Shown here piece by piece: positions 938 through 8,412 of a stretch of 12,309 nt of DNA (positions within the stretch are counted from its first letter, which is position 1; each line of letters begins with the position of its first letter). This stretch comes from an uncultured Clostridia bacterium (GTDB lineage Bacteria; Bacillota; Clostridia; Oscillospirales; Oscillospiraceae), in contig CAMWQV010000019.1 in assembly GCA_947176425.1 (NCBI GenBank), positions 1 to 12,309 on the forward strand, in the 5' to 3' direction. Below the pieces are notes generated by a model. The model saw only the letters and a list, made by a program, of their open reading frames with translations. It had not been told where the DNA came from and did not search any database. The translations under genes were made by a program, and so were the position numbers.

Positions 938-1159
938 ATGAAAACACAGATTGATTGGAAGCGCAAACTGTCCAGCCGAAAGCTGTGGGCCGCCGTGGCG
1001 GGAATCGTCGCGGGGCTGGCCATGGTATTTGGGTTGGACGGCGATACCATCTCCAATGTGGCCGGGGCCGTAGTGTCTGTGGCCTCGCTGGTGACGTACA
1101 TCATTGCAGAGGGCCGCGTGGATGCGGCCTGGGCCAAGAAGGAGGAAACAGGAGTATGA
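938..1159 (+). CDS. Small two-TM phage holin
   Basis: ORF track 938..1159, 73 aa. SD AAGGAG lies 7 nt upstream. Two TM helices (LWAAVAGIVAGLAMVFGL and VAGAVVSVASLVTYIIA) are followed by a charged C-terminus. The stop overlaps the endolysin start (ATGA at 1156-1159). Confidence 0.65.
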   Translation: MKTQIDWKRKLSSRKLWAAVAGIVAGLAMVFGLDGDTISNVAGAVVSVASLVTYIIAEGRVDAAWAKKEETGV

Positions 1160-1935
1160 CCGCACAGGAACGCTTGATTGCCACCGCAGAGAAGCAGGTG
1201 GGCTATATCGGCAAGAAATCCAACGCACAGCTGGACAGTGCTGCCGCCAACGCGGGCGGCAAGTATAACAAGTTCGCCCGCGATCTGGATGCGCTGAAGG
1301 ACTTCTATAACGGTCCGAAAAACGGCTACGACTGGTGCGATGTGTTTGTGGATTGGTGCTTTGTAACCACCTTTGGCCGGGAGCTGGCTCAAAAGCTGCT
1401 CTGCCAGCCTAACCGCTCCTGCGGAGCCGGGACAGGCTATTCTTTGGCCTACTACAAGTCCAATGGGCGGTTCTTCTCCACTCCACAGGTGGGTGACCAA
1501 ATCTTTTTCGGGGACTCTAAGTCCACCTGGCACACTGGCATTGTCACCCGTGTAACTGCCGGACTGGTTTACACTGTGGAGGGAAACGCAGGTTCTCCTC
1601 TCGGAGTCCATGCGTTCAGTTACCCCATCAACAGCAAAACCATCAAGGGTTACGGGCGCCCCAACTGGGCGCTGGTGCCCGCTGCGGAGTCCGCGCCGAC
1701 TGCGTCGGCTGCCGGCGCGCAGCCCGCCGGCGTCAAGGTAGGGGATATCGTGGACTTCAGAGGCTCGACGCACTACGCCAGCAGCAGCGCTGCCAAGGGC
1801 TCCGCCTGTAAGCCGGGGAAGGCCAAGGTGACGGCGGTGGCAAAGAACGCCGCCCACCCGTACCATCTGGTTAGGGAGAGCGGCGGCGGATCTACCGTCT
1901 ATGGATGGGTGGACGCGAAGGACATTCTGCGCTGA
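1156..1935 (+). CDS. Endolysin: N-terminal CHAP/NlpC-P60-type amidase-peptidase plus C-terminal SH3-like cell-wall-binding domain
   Basis: This is an in-frame ATG at 1156 inside track ORF 955..1935, coupled to the holin stop. The candidate catalytic Cys is in GYDWCDVFVDWCF and the His in STWHTGIV. An Ala/Pro linker follows. The tail GDIVDFRGSTHYASS...HPYHLVRESGGGSTVYGWVDAKDI is typical of clostridial endolysin binding modules. Confidence 0.85.
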   Translation: MTAQERLIATAEKQVGYIGKKSNAQLDSAAANAGGKYNKFARDLDALKDFYNGPKNGYDWCDVFVDWCFVTTFGRELAQKLLCQPNRSCGAGTGYSLAYYKSNGRFFSTPQVGDQIFFGDSKSTWHTGIVTRVTAGLVYTVEGNAGSPLGVHAFSYPINSKTIKGYGRPNWALVPAAESAPTASAAGAQPAGVKVGDIVDFRGSTHYASSSAAKGSACKPGKAKVTAVAKNAAHPYHLVRESGGGSTVYGWVDAKDILR

Positions 1936-1940
1936 TATAT

Positions 1941-1982
1941 GGGGGAAACCGGGACGACCGGCTTCCCCCATTTTTGCTTTTT
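1941..1982 (+). terminator. Rho-independent terminator of the late/lysis operon
   Basis: The stem GGGGGAAACCGG/CCGGCTTCCCCC (1941-1952 / 1958-1969) pairs at 11 of 12 positions with loop GACGA. It is followed by TTTTTGCTTTTT. Confidence 0.85.
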
Positions 1983-1992
1983 CAACGTTGAA
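1981..1992. promoter_or_regulatory. Perfect 12-bp palindrome TTCAACGTTGAA, same half-sites as the immunity-region operators
   Basis: TTCAAC/GTTGAA are the exact half-sites of the operators at 8473-8487 and 8534-8552. Here they abut with zero spacer instead of N3. Confidence 0.35.
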
Positions 1993-2270
1993 TTAATTTG
2001 GCAGTAATATGCAATTAACGCACGATTAACGCAACAGCAACACACGAAAAATACAACATTAACAATCGAGCAACTTGTTTTCAATACCTGCATCTTTTCC
2101 AAATTTATGCGGGTATGGCCGTGTTCAGTTCTCAAGGTGCCTATATAAAAGGGGCGGCGGTTGACTCCCCCTGTGCCGATGGGGTATACCCATGAGCGCC
2201 CCCGCTTCTGTTCAAGCGGGACCGGGCTTGCACCGGTGGCGGCCTGGGGCCGTCGGCCTTGCGGGTCGAT

Positions 2271-2507
2271 TTACATTTTGGGGAGCTTTGCCAGAGCGGT
2301 CTCACGGGTTTTCCCAAACCAGGGCTTCTGGAGTACACCAGGAGCCGGAAGGAACGCCCAAGTTTCAGGAGAATAGTCAGCATATTCAAAAATGCCCTCC
2401 TGGAGCAGATCGCCAACAGTACCTACGACACCGAAGCACACCTCTTTGTCATCGCTCCACACTTTTCGGATGCTGCCAGTGTAGTCACGCTTTTTAGTGA
2501 ATTTCAT
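2271..2507 (-). CDS. Hypothetical 78-aa protein
   Basis: This is the internal ATG at 2507 of track ORF 2271..2594, with SD GAAAGGA 8 nt upstream. The earlier in-frame starts would overlap the upstream gene and lack an SD. The sequence begins MKFTKKRDYTGSIRKVWSDDKEVCFGVVG. No family was recognised. Confidence 0.5.
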   Translation of the reverse strand: MKFTKKRDYTGSIRKVWSDDKEVCFGVVGTVGDLLQEGIFEYADYSPETWAFLPAPGVLQKPWFGKTRETALAKLPKM

Positions 2508-2550
2508 TTCAATCGTCCTTTCTACCCTCATAACCTCTGGGGTGGTATTG

Positions 2551-2724
2551 TCAGTCGGTTTTGTCCATGCTCTCGATAAGTTCGATGCATTCATTGACTG
2601 CGGCGGCTTTCGCCTTTGCTACGGCAGCGTCAAGCGCGGTAATGCGCCCACCCCTGCCCGCCTCTGTCATATAAGCATCAGCGAGGTGTGCGAGCGCGGA
2701 TATTATTCTGTCGATCTTTCCCAC
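2551..2724 (-). CDS. Hypothetical 57-aa helical protein (GTG start)
   Basis: Not in the ORF track, being under 60 aa. SD AAGGAGG lies 8 nt upstream of the GTG at 2724. The translation is VGKIDRIISALAHLADAYMTEAGRGGRITALDAAVAKAKAAAVNECIELIESMDKTD, with the stop at 2551-2553. Confidence 0.5.
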   Translation of the reverse strand: MGKIDRIISALAHLADAYMTEAGRGGRITALDAAVAKAKAAAVNECIELIESMDKTD

Positions 2725-2767
2725 TTTGAAAAGCCTCCTTGATTTTTCTGCTTTGCTCTGTTATCAT

Positions 2768-2801
2768 GGAGGCGGTCGGGGTAAGGCTCCCGACCGCCTC
2801 C
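2768..2801. other. 13-bp perfect GC-rich hairpin between minus-strand cistrons
   Basis: GGAGGCGGTCGGG (2768-2780) pairs with CCCGACCGCCTCC (2789-2801) around loop GTAAGGCT. There is no U-tract on either strand, so this could be an intercistronic stabiliser, a processing element or a U-less terminator. Confidence 0.5.
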
Positions 2802-2861
2802 GTTTGGCCTGCTGTAGGTCCCTGTGGTTTGTCAGGCCGGGGGCCTACTTTTACGTTTACC

Positions 2862-2942
2862 TCACCTCTTAATTTTCCGAATGACCCACCGCACCAGCAG
2901 AAAGACCGGCACAAAGATAATCACAAACAATAAATATTTCAT
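2862..2942 (-). CDS. 26-aa hydrophobic peptide with basic C-terminus (MKYLLFVIIFVPVFLLVRWVIRKIKR)
   Basis: Hand-translated and too short for the track. SD AAGGGGGG lies about 5 nt upstream of the ATG at 2942, and the TGA is at 2862-2864. It has a single TM helix plus an RKIKR tail. Confidence 0.4.
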   Translation of the reverse strand: MKYLLFVIIFVPVFLLVRWVIRKIKR

Positions 2943-3018
2943 GTTTACCCCCCTTGACGATTTTGTTGAAATCTTTTATATTTGGGGTGCGGGGGTTGAG
3001 GCCCCGCACCCCTGGCCC

Positions 3019-3159
3019 TTACCAGCCCAGCAATTTGAGGATTGCCGCTGTGATTAGGCCGGAAATGATGCCCGCCAGGATGTTGTCTTGGAACGATTCC
3101 TTCCTATCGGGCCGCGCCGCAGGTTTCGGCTTGCGGCGCTTTTTCTTTTGCTTTGCCAT
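3019..3159 (-). CDS. 46-aa tail-anchored membrane peptide with poly-basic N-terminus
   Basis: Hand-translated as MAKQKKKRRKPKPAARPDRKESFQDNILAGIISGLITAAILKLLGW. SD GAGGAGGTGAG lies about 6 nt upstream of the ATG at 3159, and the TAA is at 3019-3021. Confidence 0.55.
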   Translation of the reverse strand: MAKQKKKRRKPKPAARPDRKESFQDNILAGIISGLITAAILKLLGW

Positions 3160-3185
3160 TGCTCTCACCTCCTCTCTATGTTTTT

Positions 3186-3214
3186 ATTATACGCTTACTT
3201 GCGCAAGTAATCAA
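3186..3214 (-). promoter_or_regulatory. Sigma-70-type promoter for the minus-strand small-gene operon
   Basis: The minus strand reads TTGATT (3209-3214), a 17-nt spacer, then TATAAT (3186-3191). The 16-bp palindrome fills the spacer. Confidence 0.5.
3195..3210. promoter_or_regulatory. Perfect 16-bp palindromic operator TTACTTGCGCAAGTAA
   Basis: The palindrome is seen directly. A 14-nt direct copy of GCTTACTTGCGCAA occurs at 3193-3206 and again at 3259-3272, where it overlaps the -35 of the divergent RHH gene promoter. Confidence 0.6.
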
Positions 3215-3264
3215 TATGGGATATTTCACAAATATTTGACACTTAAATTGTTTATTTTGCTTAC

Positions 3265-3293
3265 TTGCGCAATATATATTTCCAGGTTATAAT
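3265..3293 (+). promoter_or_regulatory. Promoter of the RHH gene
   Basis: TTGCGC (3265-3270), a 17-nt spacer, then TATAAT (3288-3293). The -35 lies inside the second copy of the operator motif. Confidence 0.5.
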
Positions 3294-3316
3294 AGCACCT
3301 GGAGGGGAGTGATAGC

Positions 3317-3550
3317 ATGGGAGGCCGCGCTAGTTCCGCAAGTAAAAACAAGTGGATCGCTAAAGCGTATGACCGAATAAATCTGACTGTGCCAAAGGGC
3401 GATAAGGACAGGCTCCAAGCCCACGCAGAGGCCCGTGGGGAGTCCGTCAACGGCTTTATCAAGCGGGCCATATCTGAGACCATGGAACGGGACAACGCCG
3501 ATCTTGGGGCCGCTGAGGGCCGCGCAGAGGCAAAAGAGGAGGGCACCTGA
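3317..3550 (+). CDS. Ribbon-helix-helix (Arc/CopG-type) DNA-binding protein
   Basis: ORF track 3317..3550, with SD GGAGGGG upstream. The pattern AYDRINLTVPKGDKDRLQAHAEARGESVNGFIKRAISE is a beta-strand followed by two helices, typical of the RHH fold. It sits divergent from an operator-bearing promoter. Confidence 0.7.
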   Translation: MGGRASSASKNKWIAKAYDRINLTVPKGDKDRLQAHAEARGESVNGFIKRAISETMERDNADLGAAEGRAEAKEEGT

Positions 3551-3552
3551 TT

Positions 3553-3720
3553 TCAGGTGTCCTCCAATTCTATTTTATCGACCTTTTCCTCAAACTCCTT
3601 CACCCATTCCTTACAAGCCCATTCGATTTCTTTGATTCTGGAGCGTCCGTAGTATTTCCCGATATAGCTCATCTTCTGAGCAAGTTCCTTGTCCATGACC
3701 ATTGTGAATTTTATATCCAT
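3553..3720 (-). CDS. 55-aa RHH-like small protein
   Basis: Hand-translated as MDIKFTMVMDKELAQKMSYIGKYYGRSRIKEIEWACKEWVKEFEEKVDKIELEDT. SD GAGGTGA lies 5 nt upstream of the ATG at 3720, and the stop is at 3553-3555. The strand-helix-helix pattern resembles CopG/antitoxin-type proteins. Confidence 0.55.
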   Translation of the reverse strand: MDIKFTMVMDKELAQKMSYIGKYYGRSRIKEIEWACKEWVKEFEEKVDKIELEDT

Positions 3721-3801
3721 TGCAATCACCTCACCAGTATTCTACCTGTCAGGCATTGCTTTGGGGCGAATCCAGTATTGATTTCATACTGCAAATGTGT
3801 T

Positions 3802-3843
3802 AAAATAAAGCCGCCGACCAGGAGCGGTAACTCCTGGTCGGCG
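3802..3843 (-). terminator. Rho-independent terminator of the Spo0A_C-like gene
   Basis: A 13-bp stem pairs 3812-3824 with 3831-3843 (CGCCGACCAGGAG / CTCCTGGTCGGCG) around loop CGGTAA. The minus strand then reads TTTATTTTA. Confidence 0.8.
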
Positions 3844-3851
3844 ACAGGGCC

Positions 3852-4193
3852 TTATGTTTGATTACGGCGGATGTACTCCGCTACAGCCGAAATGAATTCT
3901 GTGGGCCAGGGACGCTCGGCGAGGTGGTATCCGACAACCTCGTCGAGCTTTTCTCTTCCACCCCGTTCCCAGCATGTATTTATTGCGGTTCGATTGGCAC
4001 GGTCAACGGCTTTCCACGTTGTACCGTAGTGCCTTGCTGCCTCCGGGTAGAGGTCTTTGGTGATCCCCTGGATACGCATTGGCTCAGCGACGATCCGCTC
4101 TATGCTGTACGTCAAGTATTGGTATCCGCATAGCCTCATGGGGATGTGTAATTCATTTAATGTCTGCTGTACGACCACAGTAATGCTATCCAT
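3852..4193 (-). CDS. Stand-alone Spo0A C-terminal (Spo0A_C, PF08769-like) DNA-binding domain protein, no receiver domain
   Basis: ORF track 3852..4193, with SD AAAGGAG 8 nt upstream. The stretch LHIPMRLCGYQYLTYSIERIVAEPMRIQGITKDLYPEAARHYGTTWKAVDRANRTAINTCWERGG...PTEFISAVAEYIR aligns by eye to B. subtilis Spo0A IGVPAHIKGYLYLREAI...[36 protein letters not shown]...PTNSEFIAMVADKLR. Confidence 0.85.
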   Translation of the reverse strand: MDSITVVVQQTLNELHIPMRLCGYQYLTYSIERIVAEPMRIQGITKDLYPEAARHYGTTWKAVDRANRTAINTCWERGGREKLDEVVGYHLAERPWPTEFISAVAEYIRRNQT

Positions 4194-4387: not shown

Positions 4388-5779
4388 TTAAGGCCGAAAA
4401 GATATTGAAATTTGGCGGGAGGGATAAATGTATATTTTGTCAATTACCATTCGCCAAAAAGCCTGTTTGCCAAGACGGTCGAGCCCACTATACATTTCCT
4501 GCCACCCGAGTGTGAAAATCGACAACAGCCTGTCTCCGTGCGGGAGTGAGGGAGATATACTATGTTCCTCAATGTCCAGGGCATCCATTTGGGCTGTGAG
4601 TGCTTCAAAATCTTTCCGGTACAACTCCAAGTCGATTATATCATCAACGTACAGATCTTTCAAGCGGGAAAATTTCTTGCGCAGCTTAGCGCGCTCCTCC
4701 TGGAAATTCTTCACGGGCGGCGCGGAAGATCTGAGCTGCTCGAGTTCGGCAACATATTTCTCTAATTCTGAGTCAATATTCTCCAGCAAGTATTCTTCAA
4801 TCACGATTTCACGTATATTAACGCCGTTGGTGCAATTGCCCTTAATATATTTACCGTGGCAGTTATAAGAAGTTGTATAGGTCTTCCCTCCGGACTTCAA
4901 AATATGTGAATAGGTGCGGCCACCAAAACGATGGCCGCACTGTGGACAATAGATCAGCCCCGTAAATAGGTACACCCGGTTTCCGTCGGTTTTCCGCTCT
5001 GTTCTGCGGCGATTTGCCTTAATGTCGTCATACTGCTCTTTTGTGATATAAGCAGGGCACATTTTGTCTATACCGCCAAAACGACCGTAATATGCTTCGT
5101 TATTCAACATATTCAATGTAAGATGGTAAGAAAAAAGAATACCATATCGTTCCTGTACCGCTGACCGTGCTTTTTGAACAGATCGGCTGGTCAAAAAAGT
5201 TTCAAAGAAACAGGACATAGGGCCCTCCATCTCGGGGTCCTTCACAATTTTCTTTCCCTCGATTTTATAGCCGGTCGGAACGCTTCCTGTGCACGGCTCC
5301 TTACGCTCCTTCTTGGCATCAAACACAGCCCTGATTCGCTCGCTGGTGCGGTCAGCCTCGTCCTGCGCTACCGATAACATGATGTTGATCTTCAGGCGGC
5401 CCGAAGCGGTAGAGGTGTCGTAGTCCTCATGGATCGTCTTCCAGTTGACCTTATGGGTCTCTAAGACTTCCTGCACCTTGTAGTATTCGGATATGTTCCG
5501 AAACCACCTATCCAGCTTTGTGAAGACGATCAAGTCGATTTTTCCGCTGCGCACATCCTCCAGGAGCCGCTGCAGCTCCGGCCGCTTCGTGGCGGGCTTC
5601 CGGGCAGAGATGCCTGCGTCCACATAGTAGCCCGCGATCTTCACGTGGTTCTCCGCCGCCCAGGCATCCAGTGCCTCGCGCTGCGCCCCGATGGACAGGC
5701 CATGGATGGCCTGTTCCTCGGTTGACACTCTCAGATAAGCTGCGACTTTGGTCAGTACGGGAAATTCTTTTGACTTCAT
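4388..5779 (-). CDS. Large serine recombinase (phage integrase type)
   Basis: ORF track 4388..5779, 463 aa, with SD AGGAGG 8 nt upstream. The N-terminal resolvase catalytic motif is AAYLRVSTEEQ...GLSIGAQ. It also has a recombinase domain, a zinc ribbon (CPQCGH...YNCHGKYIKGNC) and a C-terminal coiled coil. Confidence 0.95.
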   Translation of the reverse strand: MKSKEFPVLTKVAAYLRVSTEEQAIHGLSIGAQREALDAWAAENHVKIAGYYVDAGISARKPATKRPELQRLLEDVRSGKIDLIVFTKLDRWFRNISEYYKVQEVLETHKVNWKTIHEDYDTSTASGRLKINIMLSVAQDEADRTSERIRAVFDAKKERKEPCTGSVPTGYKIEGKKIVKDPEMEGPMSCFFETFLTSRSVQKARSAVQERYGILFSYHLTLNMLNNEAYYGRFGGIDKMCPAYITKEQYDDIKANRRRTERKTDGNRVYLFTGLIYCPQCGHRFGGRTYSHILKSGGKTYTTSYNCHGKYIKGNCTNGVNIREIVIEEYLLENIDSELEKYVAELEQLRSSAPPVKNFQEERAKLRKKFSRLKDLYVDDIIDLELYRKDFEALTAQMDALDIEEHSISPSLPHGDRLLSIFTLGWQEMYSGLDRLGKQAFWRMVIDKIYIYPSRQISISFRP

Positions 5780-5844: not shown

Positions 5845-5998
5845 ATAACCGTCCTCAGTGTTCCCGCACTGGGGGCGGCTTTTATTTGGTGGTTGTACCC
5901 AAATAGGAAACCTTTCTCTCTTGTGTGCGTATTGTTATAGTGGGAACGATGCCAGTGTGGCAGAAAATAAAACTAATGTTTCATCCCACTAAAAACCA

Positions 5999-6027
5999 TT
6001 GACAAAACACAGTCGATGAGGTATACT
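5999..6027 (+). promoter_or_regulatory. Near-consensus sigma-70 promoter with no downstream plus-strand ORF
   Basis: TTGACA (5999-6004), a 17-nt spacer, then TATACT (6022-6027). It points antisense into the 3' end of the 6110..7108 gene. Confidence 0.55.
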
Positions 6028-6030
6028 AAT

Positions 6031-6127
6031 GAAGCTAACTCGTGAAGGGTGAAAGCTGGGTTCCCGAATGGGAGTAGGTGTTTGCACCAAGAATCCCAAG
6101 CTCCTGGGGTTAGCTTCTCTTTTTCTT
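6031..6127 (+). ncRNA. Candidate roughly 90-nt structured small RNA (promoter-proximal, closed by a 9-bp helix and a U-tract)
   Basis: GAAGCTAAC (6031-6039) pairs perfectly with GTTAGCTTC (6108-6116) and is followed by TCTTTTTCTTT. Inner helices are GCTGGG/CCCAAGC (6055-6060 / 6095-6101, one bulge), TCCC/GGGA (6062-6065 / 6070-6073) and GGTG/CACC (6077-6080 / 6085-6088). The 3' arm overlaps the stop codon of the opposite-strand gene. Confidence 0.35.
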
Positions 6128-7108
6128 TAAATGATCTTTGAGGCATTGAATAATGTTTTCAGGGTCTTTTTTTATTTCTTCAACAATGAAATCAATAGCC
6201 TGCGCAGAATAGCTATATGTTGGTGCGGCGTTAATTCTGTACGTGAAGCAAAGTTTTGCGTTTGACTTTATATCATAGTACCGAACGAAAAGATTGAAAT
6301 GGTACGAATTGAATACAGCAGGGTTTCCCTGATAGAGCAATTGAACTTTTGCCCGAAAGAGCCGATTGTTTATCTCTTTAATGCATTTCTTAGCAGTGTA
6401 TTTGAAAGAGTCATTTGGGTCTTTTAATTCTTTGATAATTTGAACTTTAGAATCTGCGTCTTTTGAAACGGCCAAAATTTCTGTTGCTTCACTTTTGTTT
6501 TTTGTGATGTAATGCCTGTGGTCTATACGAATGGCAAAATCACTGTTGCTTTGCGCAATCTCTGCGTTGATATTATCTGTAACAGTTAAAAATCTTTCCG
6601 CAATTTCTTTTGGATACTTTGCTCTGATTTCTGTCGCCGTTAATGTTCGTATGCTGGCGGCAAGTGTTAAGAAATTCTCTGGGACAACACAAGTCATATC
6701 AACACTGTGGAATTCCATCATTTTTTCATTGAAGTTGAATACACAAGCCTGAAAAAGAGGAATGTAAACCATCTCATATTCTTCTACGATAAAATGCGTA
6801 CTGGTATTGCGCAATTCTACAATTTTTTCTAGATTTTTTCGGATGGGTGCGTGCTCATTTGTAAAAATTGCTTTAATGCAATTTTCGAGAGAAATGGTTC
6901 TGCTTGGATTATCCCTATAATAAATTGCAGATTCGCCAGAAGTTTGGATAATTCTTGCTTTCAGCATTAACTCCCAAGCATTACAGATAAAAAAGCTGAA
7001 CCCTTCCACTCTGTAGCGGATGGAAGGTTTGTTATAGACCTCAAGCGCCATTAAGAAGGCCTCTTTAGCTTTGTCTATAAGTTTAGCCCTTAATGAAGGA
7101 TTGTCCAT
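6110..7108 (-). CDS. 332-aa protein with an HEPN-like RNxxxH motif; N-terminus resembles DUF3644 (PF12358); candidate abortive-infection/defence effector
   Basis: ORF track 6110..7108. The N-terminal helices are KAKEAFLMALEVYNKPSIRYRVEGFSFFICNAWELMLKA. ELRNTSTH (R100-x4-H105, nt 6794-6811) fits the HEPN Rx4-6H signature. The gene is AT-rich: sampled 60-nt lines give 25-38% GC, against 58% in a sampled ImmA line. Confidence 0.6.
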   Translation of the reverse strand: MDNPSLRAKLIDKAKEAFLMALEVYNKPSIRYRVEGFSFFICNAWELMLKARIIQTSGESAIYYRDNPSRTISLENCIKAIFTNEHAPIRKNLEKIVELRNTSTHFIVEEYEMVYIPLFQACVFNFNEKMMEFHSVDMTCVVPENFLTLAASIRTLTATEIRAKYPKEIAERFLTVTDNINAEIAQSNSDFAIRIDHRHYITKNKSEATEILAVSKDADSKVQIIKELKDPNDSFKYTAKKCIKEINNRLFRAKVQLLYQGNPAVFNSYHFNLFVRYYDIKSNAKLCFTYRINAAPTYSYSAQAIDFIVEEIKKDPENIIQCLKDHLKKKRS

Positions 7109-7164
7109 ATTAATCCTGCTTTCTGCTTATTTCTTTCCCTGCCCCACTTGGGGCGACGCTATAT

Positions 7165-7204
7165 CCGCTTCCGGTGTTGGTAGCACCGGGGCGGTTTTTG
7201 TTTT
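7165..7204 (+). terminator. Plus-strand intrinsic terminator with no plus-strand gene upstream
   Basis: CCGC-tt-CCGGTG (7165-7176) pairs with CACCGG-g-GCGG (7184-7194) around loop TTGGTAG. TTTTTGTTTT (7195-7204) follows immediately. The U-tract exists only in the plus orientation. Confidence 0.6.
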
Positions 7205-7207
7205 ATA

Positions 7208-7236
7208 GTGACATAGCACCTCGAAATCTATACAAT
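7208..7236 (+). promoter_or_regulatory. Promoter of the ImmA-like gene
   Basis: GTGACA (7208-7213), a 17-nt spacer, then TACAAT (7231-7236). SD GGAGGTG lies 7 nt before the ATG at 7257. Confidence 0.45.
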
Positions 7237-7256
7237 ACCCGCGGAGGTGCTTTTAT

Positions 7257-7880
7257 ATGAGCTACAAAGATTATCAAAACGCAAGAGACTCAGCCTGGAG
7301 GATTCTTTTGGACTGCGGGATCGACCGGCTCCCGGTGGACCTCAACCCAATCTGTAAACACTTAGGTGTCAGGGTTGTTCGGTACTCTAAAGCAGGCCCG
7401 CTCCTCGATCTGCCCAATTTGTCAAAAGCCATGAGGTGGTACGATGGCCTGGCGTTTTATGCAGACGAGCTGCCTGTCATCCTGTACAACGACGCTTGTT
7501 CCCCTGAGCGCATCCGGTTTACAGTCGCCCATGAGTTGGGCCACATCATTCTCGCGCATGTGAAGCCGGAGCAGGGCACGACAGCGAATCGGGAGCCACC
7601 GAAAAGAAACGATCCCATAGAAGTGGCAGCAAACCAATTTGCGGCCCGCCTTCTGGCCCCGGCCTGCGTGCTTTGGGGTATGCAGCTACATACCGCTGAG
7701 GAAATTGCCTCGGCCTGCTTTATCTCGAAACAAGCGGCAGAGTTCCGGGCAGCAAGAATGGAGGACCTGTACCGGCGGAATCGGTTTCTGACCTCACCCC
7801 TGGAGCAGGAAGTGTTTCAACGGTTTAAGCCGTTTATCAAGGAAGAGACACATCATCATCCGGTACATCGTCTGCGCTAA
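7257..7880 (+). CDS. ImmA/IrrE-family (COG2856) zinc metallopeptidase, anti-repressor protease
   Basis: ORF track 7257..7880. The HEXXH motif is in FTVAHELGHIILAH, with downstream EVAANQFAARLLAP, typical of the family. It sits adjacent to the XRE repressor. Confidence 0.9.
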   Translation: MSYKDYQNARDSAWRILLDCGIDRLPVDLNPICKHLGVRVVRYSKAGPLLDLPNLSKAMRWYDGLAFYADELPVILYNDACSPERIRFTVAHELGHIILAHVKPEQGTTANREPPKRNDPIEVAANQFAARLLAPACVLWGMQLHTAEEIASACFISKQAAEFRAARMEDLYRRNRFLTSPLEQEVFQRFKPFIKEETHHHPVHRLR

Positions 7881-8412
7881 TTCTCTCCGCCTGAACAGAA
7901 CTGTTTTTAATTGCAGCGGCCTGATGCAAGGGCCGCTGCTCTTTTTCTGCCGGCACTTCCGAAGACGGGAACGATACAAGGCGGTTTTCGCCTTCGTCAA
8001 TTTCATCCACACCTTTCGATTTGGTAGTGGCCTCAGTATCCTCCTTGAACACGCTTTTGAACTTCTCCAGTATCTGCGAGCGGACATCCTGTGGAAGGTC
8101 AAAGTAAGCCTTGGCAATGGCAAGCTCCAGGGGTGACGCTCCGCGATCTTTTGCATACTGGTCGAGGCTGAATGTGGCCGGTTCAATAAATATGGGGCCA
8201 TCGCCCCCAGTCCCATTGATAAGCCAATCTTCATCTACATGAAATTCATGGCAAATACGGTTAATGATAAGTTTGCTTGGACGGCATTTTTCTGGTTGTT
8301 TTCCCATTTTCGAGATATAAGCCGGGGTTACATCAATTTTTCGAGCAAATTCGCTCATATTTCCGCCAACTGCGTCTACAACCTTCATGATTCGTATAGC
8401 TATGGCTCCCAT
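7837..8412 (-). CDS. XRE-family HTH repressor (ImmR/CI-like, no S24 peptidase domain)
   Basis: ORF track 7837..8412, with SD AAGGAGG 8 nt upstream. The N-terminal HTH is MSEFARKIDVTPAYISKMGK...INRICHEFHVDEDWLINGTG, and the C-terminal half is acidic and low in complexity. It is divergent from a consensus early promoter that carries palindromic operators. Confidence 0.85.
   Translation of the reverse strand: MGAIAIRIMKVVDAVGGNMSEFARKIDVTPAYISKMGKQPEKCRPSKLIINRICHEFHVDEDWLINGTGGDGPIFIEPATFSLDQYAKDRGASPLELAIAKAYFDLPQDVRSQILEKFKSVFKEDTEATTKSKGVDEIDEGENRLVSFPSSEVPAEKEQRPLHQAAAIKNSSVQAERISADDVPDDDVSLP

Follow-up and report, generated by a model that had tools for sequence, protein, structure and literature searches.

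A 12,309-nucleotide stretch of contig CAMWQV010000019.1, assembled from an uncultured Clostridia bacterium and referred to here as the window, contains between the integrase and immunity genes of a temperate phage a gene for a HEPN protein of the DUF3644 family and, converging on its 3' end, a gene for a structured small RNA (sRNA). The protein belongs to a known family, retains the conserved HEPN residues, and occurs as cargo of the lysogeny module. The sRNA gene is real and conserved; it always accompanies the phage-borne branch of this protein family and also flanks other defence genes. The explanation that we favor, to which we would give an even chance of being correct, is that the locus is a cassette carried by the prophage in which a HEPN RNase is coupled to an RNA with a regulatory or antitoxin-like role, a functional link that we infer.

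A first-pass annotation of this DNA, made from the letters alone, had placed a single gene at 6110-7108, noted a resemblance of its N-terminal helical module to DUF3644, and left the C-terminal ~200 residues unassigned. The open reading frame (ORF) proved to have exactly this extent, on the minus strand and encoding 332 aa. In Pfam profile searches, residues 9-183 matched DUF3644 (PF12358; E=3.8e-60, profile positions 1-182 of 183), confirming this resemblance and identifying the helical module as a DUF3644-type HEPN domain. The C-terminal part turned out not to be unassigned, with residues 230-324 matching the EC042_2821-like restriction endonuclease (REase)-like domain (PF18740; E=4e-32). 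The suggestion that the gene is a defence candidate was borne out by a match to the PADLOC candidate PDC-S19 (model PDLC04952; E=2.4e-141, residues 6-330 against profile positions 4-328 of 328); a second PDC-S19 model matched at E=9e-128 and seven further PDC-S19 models matched more weakly. The protein also matched PHROG 9605 (E=1e-125), a family with no assigned function. No match was obtained in NCBIfam, and searches of PDB sequences with protein and profile queries gave nothing significant. The family is large, with 3,219 homologous clusters in a word-indexed search and 1,456 representatives at 50% clustering. All 75 aligned homologues matched PF12358, and 73 of the 75 had the two-domain architecture.

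This architecture has been on record for more than 10 years, since Anantharaman et al. in 2013 defined the EC042_2821 HEPN family as one that overlaps DUF3644, has a novel C-terminal domain of REase fold, and occurs in restriction-modification (R-M) operons (PMC3710099). The present protein shares with that family both Pfam domains in the same order and the conserved Rx4H motif. In contrast, the type protein has an additional N-terminal winged helix-turn-helix (wHTH) domain and was noted in R-M operons, whereas the protein studied here has no wHTH and is prophage cargo; the 2013 work mentions no sRNA, whereas the present protein is coupled to one and lacks D209, H235 and P236. PDC-S19 is a computational single-gene candidate that PADLOC derived from association with defence islands, and its model holds no RNA component. 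No mention of PDC-S19, PF18740 or PF12358 was found in the searchable literature, and PDC-S19 was not among the candidates tested in two studies that assayed PADLOC candidates. On these profile matches, the protein is a new prophage-borne member of the family predicted in 2013 and of PDC-S19. The locus had been put forward as an undescribed system; "uncharacterized" holds, in that the searchable literature yielded no characterized system built on precisely this protein, but "undescribed" does not, given the 2013 family and the PADLOC candidate.

The proposed HEPN motif, IVELRNTSTHF, spans residues 96-106 and contains R100, N101 and H105. N26, W45, K50, R100 and H105, and no other columns, were invariant in an alignment of 75 homologues with identities as low as 25%, and among 95 representatives R100 and H105 were 99% conserved and N101 76% conserved, in agreement with the motif as proposed and with the expectation that its residues would be conserved among homologues. 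An AlphaFold2 (AF2) model built on a diverse alignment had a predicted local distance difference test score of 90.9 and was helical over residues 4-186, with helices at 4-26, 33-57, 74-81, 88-102 and 111-134. When the model was compared with the PDB by Foldseek, a check suggested in the first-pass annotation, the only specific matches were HEPN proteins, namely HepT/MntA (7bxo, 6m6u, 6m6w), SO_3166 (5yep), AF_0298 (2hsb), sacsin (3o10) and AbiV (9bj7). The outcome was therefore mixed, the matches being of the expected kind but weak (E=0.2-2, probability up to 0.97, target-normalized template modeling score 0.47-0.67). A fold search of BFVD returned one fragmentary homologue only. A related N-terminal DUF3644 HEPN domain is found in HEC-08, which defends Escherichia coli against phages and in which mutation of the motif histidine abolishes defence (Payne et al. 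2024, bioRxiv 10.1101/2024.01.29.577857). HEC-08 differs in having C-terminal zinc-ribbon-like domains, where the present protein has the REase-like domain, and in being embedded in Hma systems of Proteobacteria; the PADLOC HEC models gave no match to the present protein at E≤1. Sequence and literature thus support the HEPN reading well, and structure search supports it weakly.

The C-terminal half was much less conserved than the HEPN half, and the linker and beta-rich segment at residues 187-229 had lower AF2 confidence. Conserved C-terminal residues of the wider family are K203, D209, D230, H235, P236, K281, Y300 and S301. At positions 209, 235 and 236 this protein instead has T, F and K (nucleotides ~6400-6484), with the HEPN residues still invariant. 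Within the clade of at least 60% identity, which comprises 120 clusters from gut-Clostridia phages, T209 was present in 120/120, K236 was near-universal and position 235 was variable. D209 is the best-conserved acidic residue in this half of the family (70 of 95 representatives). No clear PD-(D/E)xK pattern was conserved across the family alignment, and no REase structure was among the PDB fold or sequence matches. An active PD-(D/E)xK nuclease is therefore not supported for this domain, given the missing signature, the loss of D209 and the lack of an REase structural match. The domain is more probably a nucleic-acid-binding, sensor or oligomerization module than a second nuclease.

The gene was also expected to be foreign in composition and to occupy a slot between integrase and immunity genes. 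Its GC content is 36.4% (36.6% at third codon positions) compared with 52.9% for the remainder of the window, and the lowest-GC 999-nt stretch of the contig is the gene itself. The direction of the claim was thus correct and its figures were not, with 60-nt lines inside the gene at 30 to 47% GC rather than 25 to 38% and neighbours at 46 to 55% (integrase, 49%; ImmA, 54.5%) rather than 58%. Homologues in four further prophages had GC contents 12 to 20 points under those of their flanks. The slot was confirmed, with a serine recombinase on one side and ImmA and repressor genes on the other, and it recurred in unrelated prophages and satellites. Writing X for the DUF3644 gene, the arrangement was [RNase_T-BRCT][177 aa][X][serine recombinase] in mouse-gut phages (82% identity), [HTH][X][serine recombinase] for a homologue of 75% identity, where HTH is helix-turn-helix, and [HTH repressor][X][tyrosine integrase] followed by host genes for homologues of 63 to 64% identity. 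It was [ImmA metalloprotease][X]...[integrase] in Flavonifractor phage Chenonceau, the closest deposited relative of the gene, [DNA-binding][DNA-binding][X][integrase] in the Streptococcus pyogenes satellite Javan495 (SpyCIM5), and [holin][lysin][X] in Listeria phage LP-HM00113468. These records all label the gene either hypothetical or DUF3644. In nucleotide comparisons, the sole segment common to the window and deposited phages was 6032-7044, comprising the gene and its 3' flank, shared with phage Chenonceau. From the recurring slot and this sole common segment, we therefore consider the gene to be a mobile cargo cassette of the lysogeny module. The exact protein sequence of the window had no contig match on record. 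A gene for an RNase_T(DEDDh)-BRCT protein (PADLOC PDC-S48; locus L001 6014-7390, locus L082 226-1407) lies two genes upstream of the DUF3644 gene in the mouse-gut phages and is, elsewhere, itself the gene that converges on the sRNA.

An alignment of the 3' flanks revealed that ~110 nt past the HEPN stop codon were more conserved than the coding sequence and contained one hairpin with compensatory changes. The RNAalifold consensus of 41 diverse copies had five helices. The closing stem, P1, has 10 bp, six of which showed double compensatory changes; at one pair, the distribution was CG:18/UA:16/UG:5/AU:2. The other helices comprise two short conserved ones, one invariant hairpin (UUCCC-GAAU-GGGAG) and one variable, covarying hairpin. 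In this alignment, 97.8% of cells were paired, compared with 90.4% in shuffles and 39 to 59% in controls with slid partners, and there were 100 double-compensatory cells, compared with 27 in shuffles (0/500 reached 100) and at most 16 in slid controls. The RNA strand was assigned as the one opposite the cargo gene (plus in the window), because the complementary strand would have C.A mismatches in place of the many G.U pairs. The sense strand was rejected as the functional RNA on these pairs and mismatches and on the location of the promoter and U-tail on the opposite strand, yet as a single sequence it is the more stable of the two (z=-2.7 versus -0.3). A protein-coding reading of the conserved element was also rejected, the length changes of the variable hairpin not being multiples of three and the paired columns covarying.

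The element has the signals of an independent gene. The sRNA converges with the HEPN gene and at its 3' end shares 18 nt with it, covering the HEPN stop codon and the five codons before it; the sRNA U-run is the complement of the Lys-rich C-terminal codons. A promoter equivalent to that in the window was observed, with a small hairpin, in homologous loci L001, L006, L008 and L012. Among 83 distinct loci, a sigma-70-type promoter match of at least 9/12 was present in 58, at a fixed distance in 49, and with a perfect TTGACA in 41; the loci with no such match were mostly from Actinobacteria. A run of at least four T followed P1 in 72/83 loci. The first-pass annotation had proposed that the gene was bracketed by antisense RNA. 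What was found instead is a deeply conserved sRNA gene of ~95 nt converging on the 3' end of the ORF, and a gene-long antisense transcript (5999-7191) is unlikely, since the sRNA terminator at 6092-6127 is conserved in 72/83 loci.

No relevant match was found in Rfam 15 (including the abiF motif, C4 and ribozymes) at E≤10 with either a 1.6-kb or a 126-nt query, and a tRNA/tmRNA search with ARAGORN found none. Integron attC sites have R''/R' boxes of the form RYYYAAC...GTTRRRY, a variable centre and an IntI integrase nearby. The closing stem of the sRNA resembles these boxes at 6/7 positions only, and the integrases adjoining sRNA elements were ordinary phage serine or tyrosine integrases. An attC site was therefore rejected, the centre being invariant rather than variable, no IntI-type integrase being seen, and the element having its own promoter and U-tail. 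The only paper found to contain the core sequence gives it as a PCR primer, M5int5, in SpyCIM5, and the RNA was not recognized there (PMC3430984). Since this primer sits inside the sRNA gene, the longest reporter construct of Scott et al. 2012 (PMC3430984) began within it. In SpyCIM5/Javan495 itself, a diverged sRNA (locus L013, 4478-4575, minus strand, 79 bits) lies between the DUF3644 gene and an integrase pseudogene. The sRNA is apparently undescribed so far.

The coupling of the two genes was examined in 83 sources, namely 80 loci from IMG/VR, the window, and the Javan495 and Listeria phage loci. The IMG/VR loci came from a family-profile scan in which 282 contigs encoded a relative, and the 80 retrieved had 50 to 71% identity. 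The covariance model matched 80/83 sources, in each case next to the DUF3644 gene's 3' end and in the opposite orientation. The three sources with no match were viral loci ending within ~100 nt after the gene, so that all sources with enough flank (80/80) had the sRNA. It was also found beside Corynebacterium DUF3644 homologues at 35 to 40% protein identity and beside a homologue of 43% identity on a Staphylococcus epidermidis plasmid. That plasmid, pSep6-3 (locus L185), has two sRNA copies 1.7 kb apart, at 637-735 and 2464-2560, both on the minus strand; one lies behind a CapA-family gene and the other behind the DUF3644 gene, with a "sporulation protein" gene between them, and the record leaves the DUF3644 ORF unannotated. 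The sRNA is the only conserved neighbour of the HEPN gene, and no adjoining protein antitoxin is conserved, which leaves the sRNA as the sole conserved candidate for restraining or regulating the protein. In the phage-borne branch, the DUF3644 protein never occurs without the sRNA and the sRNA often occurs without the protein, an asymmetry that is the pattern expected of a toxin and its indispensable, non-toxic partner.

The sRNA is, however, not confined to DUF3644 loci. An exact 27-mer of its sequence was found in 26 IMG/VR contigs and 64 GTDB species genomes from Clostridia, Negativicutes, Corynebacterium, Coriobacteriia, Desulfovibrio, Ruminobacter, Bacteroidaceae and one planctomycete, a range that includes Actinobacteria, Gammaproteobacteria, Bacteroidota and Planctomycetes. 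Most of the convergent neighbours other than DUF3644 were known or candidate defence genes, with 12/19 of those tested matching PADLOC families. They included a recurrent type I R-M methylase, PglX/type IIG and type IIG R-M genes, AbiD (twice), a type III REase fragment, and the candidates PDC-S48 (RNase_T-BRCT), PDC-S13, PDC-S25, PDC-M04B, PDC-M24B and PDC-M68B; HNH, SfsA and CapA-family genes were also found. On the promoter side of the sRNA, integrases were common, not universal, in a crude classification limited by spurious ORFs. From its many other defence neighbours, we therefore propose that the sRNA marks a hotspot of defence cargo in prophages of several phyla, and since other defence cassettes use it too, we regard it as a common module and not as one specific to HEPN genes. 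At one IMG/VR locus that has no DUF3644 gene (L031, region 1835-1852), the sRNA is identical to the Chenonceau copy until homology ends at the 3' half of P1. This copy resembles a relic of a cassette that has lost its cargo, the break falling within the RNA terminator.

Several of the results weigh against a HEPN cassette coupled to its RNA, among them the weak structural matches described above. About 35% of the exact-27-mer loci (36/103) had no upstream DUF3644 gene, and a profile search of those 36 whole loci found no DUF3644 at all in 35/36 and one small fragment. With a shorter core, 86 non-redundant viral loci had as convergent neighbour DUF3644 in 44, another ORF in 32 and none in 6, the flank being too short in 4. 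The sRNA was absent beside two actinobacterial plasmid homologues of 23% identity, and since these most distant homologues have no sRNA, the DUF3644 family can function without it. The sequence variants of the sRNA did not group by cargo type, its overlap with the mRNA is merely 18 nt, and no conserved complementarity with the HEPN translation-initiation region was found. A dedicated antitoxin is argued against, because the sRNA is common to non-toxic cargo such as methylases. A promoter scan of 7109-7256 identified no promoter for the HEPN gene itself. Finally, no experiment on PDC-S19 or on the DUF3644 plus REase-like architecture was found in the searchable literature, and defence, toxicity and RNase activity are all predictions for this protein. 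One of the two plasmids with distant homologues, from Dietzia (locus L187, 2974-6433), was observed to have the DUF3644 gene adjoining genes for a DUF262 protein and an EcoRI-family methyltransferase, which agrees with the R-M association reported for the family in 2013.

The shared occurrence with non-toxic cargo, the unsorted variants, the 18-nt overlap and the lack of initiation-region pairing make one alternative the main rival, namely that the HEPN protein acts alone, as in the single-gene model of PADLOC, and that the sRNA belongs to the phage independently of it, as a generic module at the boundary of accessory ("moron") or defence cassettes that has no specific functional tie to the protein. 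The sRNA could then be a terminator or insulator shielding the integrase from read-through, a lysogeny regulator, or an anti-defence decoy. This is a real possibility, though one that we would bet against. It accommodates the like convergent layout of the sRNA beside R-M, PglX, AbiD, PDC, HNH, SfsA and CapA genes, the DUF3644-free loci, the distant proteins that have no sRNA, and the terminator-like hairpins on both sides of the unit. Against it stands the 80/80 coupling, which extends over a phage-borne clade of 48 to 100% protein identity in unrelated phage backbones. Furthermore, a mere terminator needs neither invariant loops and junctions nor an exact 27-mer across phyla, and the gene together with the RNA is the only segment that the window has in common with phage Chenonceau.

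The hairpins in question are GC-rich, and one lies upstream of the sRNA promoter and the other just past the 5' end of the HEPN gene, at the far limit of the proposed antisense bracket. Counterparts of the former were found at L008 9161..9132 and L012 6156..6126, and of the latter at L008 7965..7942; the stem of the latter, CCGGTGTTGGTAGCACCGG, recurs in L012 on the opposite side of the cassette. The two hairpins are alike, with the form CCG...CCGGTGTTGGTAGCACCGG...CGG followed by a T-rich stretch, both on the sRNA strand and one on each side of the gene and RNA unit, and nearly the same stem thus occurs on opposite sides in different phages. The hairpin upstream of the promoter is a possible insulator, and the pair may be insulators or cassette borders. 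They are compatible with an insulated cassette whether the RNA is the partner of the HEPN protein or a generic element.

Under the coupled-cassette explanation, the protein would be made in the lysogen as a latent, metal-independent endoribonuclease. HEPN enzymes normally dimerize, and two Rx4-6H motifs form one active site. On sensing a superinfecting phage or another invading element, the protein would cut RNA and the infection would be stopped by abortive infection or exclusion. The sRNA would restrain or regulate the cassette, either by binding to the protein as its antitoxin or cofactor (a type III-like mode, exemplified by RCd22 and AbiF) or through convergent transcription and its overlap with the mRNA at the 3' end (a mode like that of type I systems or lambda OOP).

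Type III toxin-antitoxin RNAs are dedicated to their toxin, lie upstream on the same strand, and often consist of repeats processed by the toxin. The present sRNA differs in being single copy, convergent and downstream, with about half of its copies having no convergent DUF3644 gene, and shares with type III systems the invariable association of the gene with a conserved noncoding RNA (ncRNA). In type I systems, an antisense RNA pairs with the mRNA of a toxin that is a small membrane peptide, unlike the 332-aa soluble protein found here with only a short 3' overlap and no conserved initiation-region complementarity. Short convergent sRNAs that have their own promoter and terminator and overlap the 3' end of a prophage gene are known from lambda (OOP) and from the Bacillus subtilis prophage pairs txpA/RatA and bsrG/SR4. 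OOP, RatA and SR4 are each dedicated to one target gene, with which they share a long overlap, whereas the present sRNA overlaps by just 18 nt and keeps its sequence whatever the neighbouring gene. The AbiF/RCd22 pair of Clostridioides difficile is a prophage-borne HEPN-type toxin neutralized by an adjacent structured ncRNA (PMC12373285). It resembles the present locus in the tight linkage of a HEPN-type protein to a structured ncRNA and is a precedent for neutralization of such a toxin by an adjacent ncRNA; the present cassette may work in this way. The resemblance ends there, RCd22 bearing the Rfam abiF motif and the present sRNA having no Rfam match, lying downstream and convergent, and being common to non-HEPN cargo.

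The target might also be different. Ishtar proteins are monogenic, cause loss of plasmid RP4, and combine an N-terminal HEPN domain (labelled DUF4145 or DUF3644) with a C-terminal alpha/beta domain of 5-7 strands and 3 helices (Poire et al. 2026, bioRxiv 10.64898/2026.07.06.735840); they also occur in satellites and integrons (bioRxiv 10.64898/2026.07.06.735840). This similar layout, and the abundance of the DUF3644 family in satellites that compete with other elements, for example SpyCI/Javan, suggest that the protein could target plasmids or competing mobile elements instead of phages. We regard this as unlikely, no relationship to Ishtar having been detected by motifs, Pfam, BLAST or hhalign. 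Membership in Ishtar was rejected, the motifs of the present family being absent from Ishtar Table S3 and BLAST against ist1/ist2 or the tabulated homologues giving E>1. By hhalign, the probability was 0.4 to 0.7%, with alignment at the RN..H motif only. The Ishtar proteins read from the table are also shorter (164 to 261 aa compared with ~330 here), and three that were sampled had no Pfam hit. On these comparisons, the likeness is at the level of superfamily and layout only.

Alternatively, the cassette could be chiefly an addiction or maintenance module, in which a toxin and its RNA antitoxin stabilize the prophage or satellite, rather than a defence system. A toxin-like HEPN protein that always has an RNA partner, the tolerance of orphan RNAs, the position of the cassette next to the integrase, and the L031 relic with its broken closing stem where the gene is missing would all suit such a module. 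We nevertheless consider it very unlikely as the chief role, since the same sRNA lies beside non-toxic genes such as methylases and PDC-S19 was built by PADLOC from defence-island association. It also overlaps the coupled-cassette explanation, as HEPN toxins often act in both defence and addiction.

Besides the integrase and the ImmA and repressor genes, the latter two of which also match PHROG transcriptional regulator and repressor families, Pfam searches identified a CHAP endolysin, an SLT lysozyme and a Spo0A_C-domain protein, and because of these genes the window is taken as part of a temperate phage of a Clostridia-like host. The Spo0A_C protein is a stand-alone Spo0A C-terminal DNA-binding domain (3852-4193, minus strand; Pfam E=3e-28) encoded just past the integrase and may be a mimic or competitor of the host sporulation regulator. 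The CHAP endolysin, a lysis gene (955-1935, plus strand), lies ~2.4 kb from the integrase, and 1971-3850 has no confident gene. The phage attachment site is probably in this gap, and the contig may be an excised or circularly permuted phage genome. The ImmA and HTH repressor genes converge with a 44-nt overlap at 7837-7880, and a plus-strand terminator-like hairpin (7913-7939) lies inside the 3' end of the repressor gene.

Table 1. Features of the cassette and its surroundings, in window coordinates
Feature	Position	Strand	Basis
Structured sRNA gene, ~95 nt	6030..6127	plus	Covariance model R1, 100.2 bits, E=1e-25
sRNA promoter, TTGACA-17-TATACT	5999..6027	plus	Promoter scan, 11/12 matches
sRNA terminator, 3' half of closing stem P1 and U-run	6092..6127	plus	Terminator-like site 6092-6111
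DUF3644 (HEPN) and EC042_2821 REase-like protein gene	6110..7108	minus	ORF, 332 aa, ATG start; Pfam, PADLOC and PHROG matches
HEPN domain (DUF3644), residues 9-183	6560..7084	minus	Pfam match; all-helical in AF2 model
Rx4H catalytic motif, R100-N-T-S-T-H105	6794..6811	minus	Conservation among homologues
EC042_2821-like REase-like domain, residues 230-324	6137..6421	minus	Pfam PF18740
GC-rich terminator-like hairpin, possible insulator, upstream of sRNA promoter	5849..5878	plus	Hairpin scan
GC-rich terminator-like hairpin, just past 5' end of HEPN gene	7169..7191	plus	Hairpin scan; function putative
Large serine recombinase (integrase)	4388..5779	minus	Pfam Resolvase and Zn_ribbon_recom; context, outside cassette
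ImmA/IrrE metalloprotease	7257-7880	plus	Pfam Peptidase_M78; immunity module, context only
HTH repressor	7837-8412	minus	Pfam HTH_3; immunity module, context only

The locus thus appears to be a variant of the theme of a HEPN toxin plus RNA, in which the protein family is known and the partner RNA appears new. The new part is the sRNA, a complete gene from promoter to terminator with strong covariation and no Rfam family. A wider proposal, which we put forward tentatively and with more doubt than conviction, is that it represents a new, widespread class of structured RNA that is a working part of prophage defence cassettes, as a shared antitoxin, cofactor or infection sensor, with the DUF3644-REase-like protein as its principal, dependent partner. 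The phage version of PDC-S19 would then be a two-component protein-RNA system, and the RNA would control a hotspot of interchangeable defence genes across phyla. If the sRNA does regulate or neutralize its neighbours, this would explain how prophages can carry a potentially toxic HEPN RNase with no protein antitoxin. In that case, too, the covariance model would be a simple sequence handle for defence cargo in temperate phages and satellites, and PDC-S19 would be directly testable in natural, tractable carriers such as Listeria phage LP-HM00113468, S. pyogenes SpyCIM5 and Flavonifractor phage Chenonceau.

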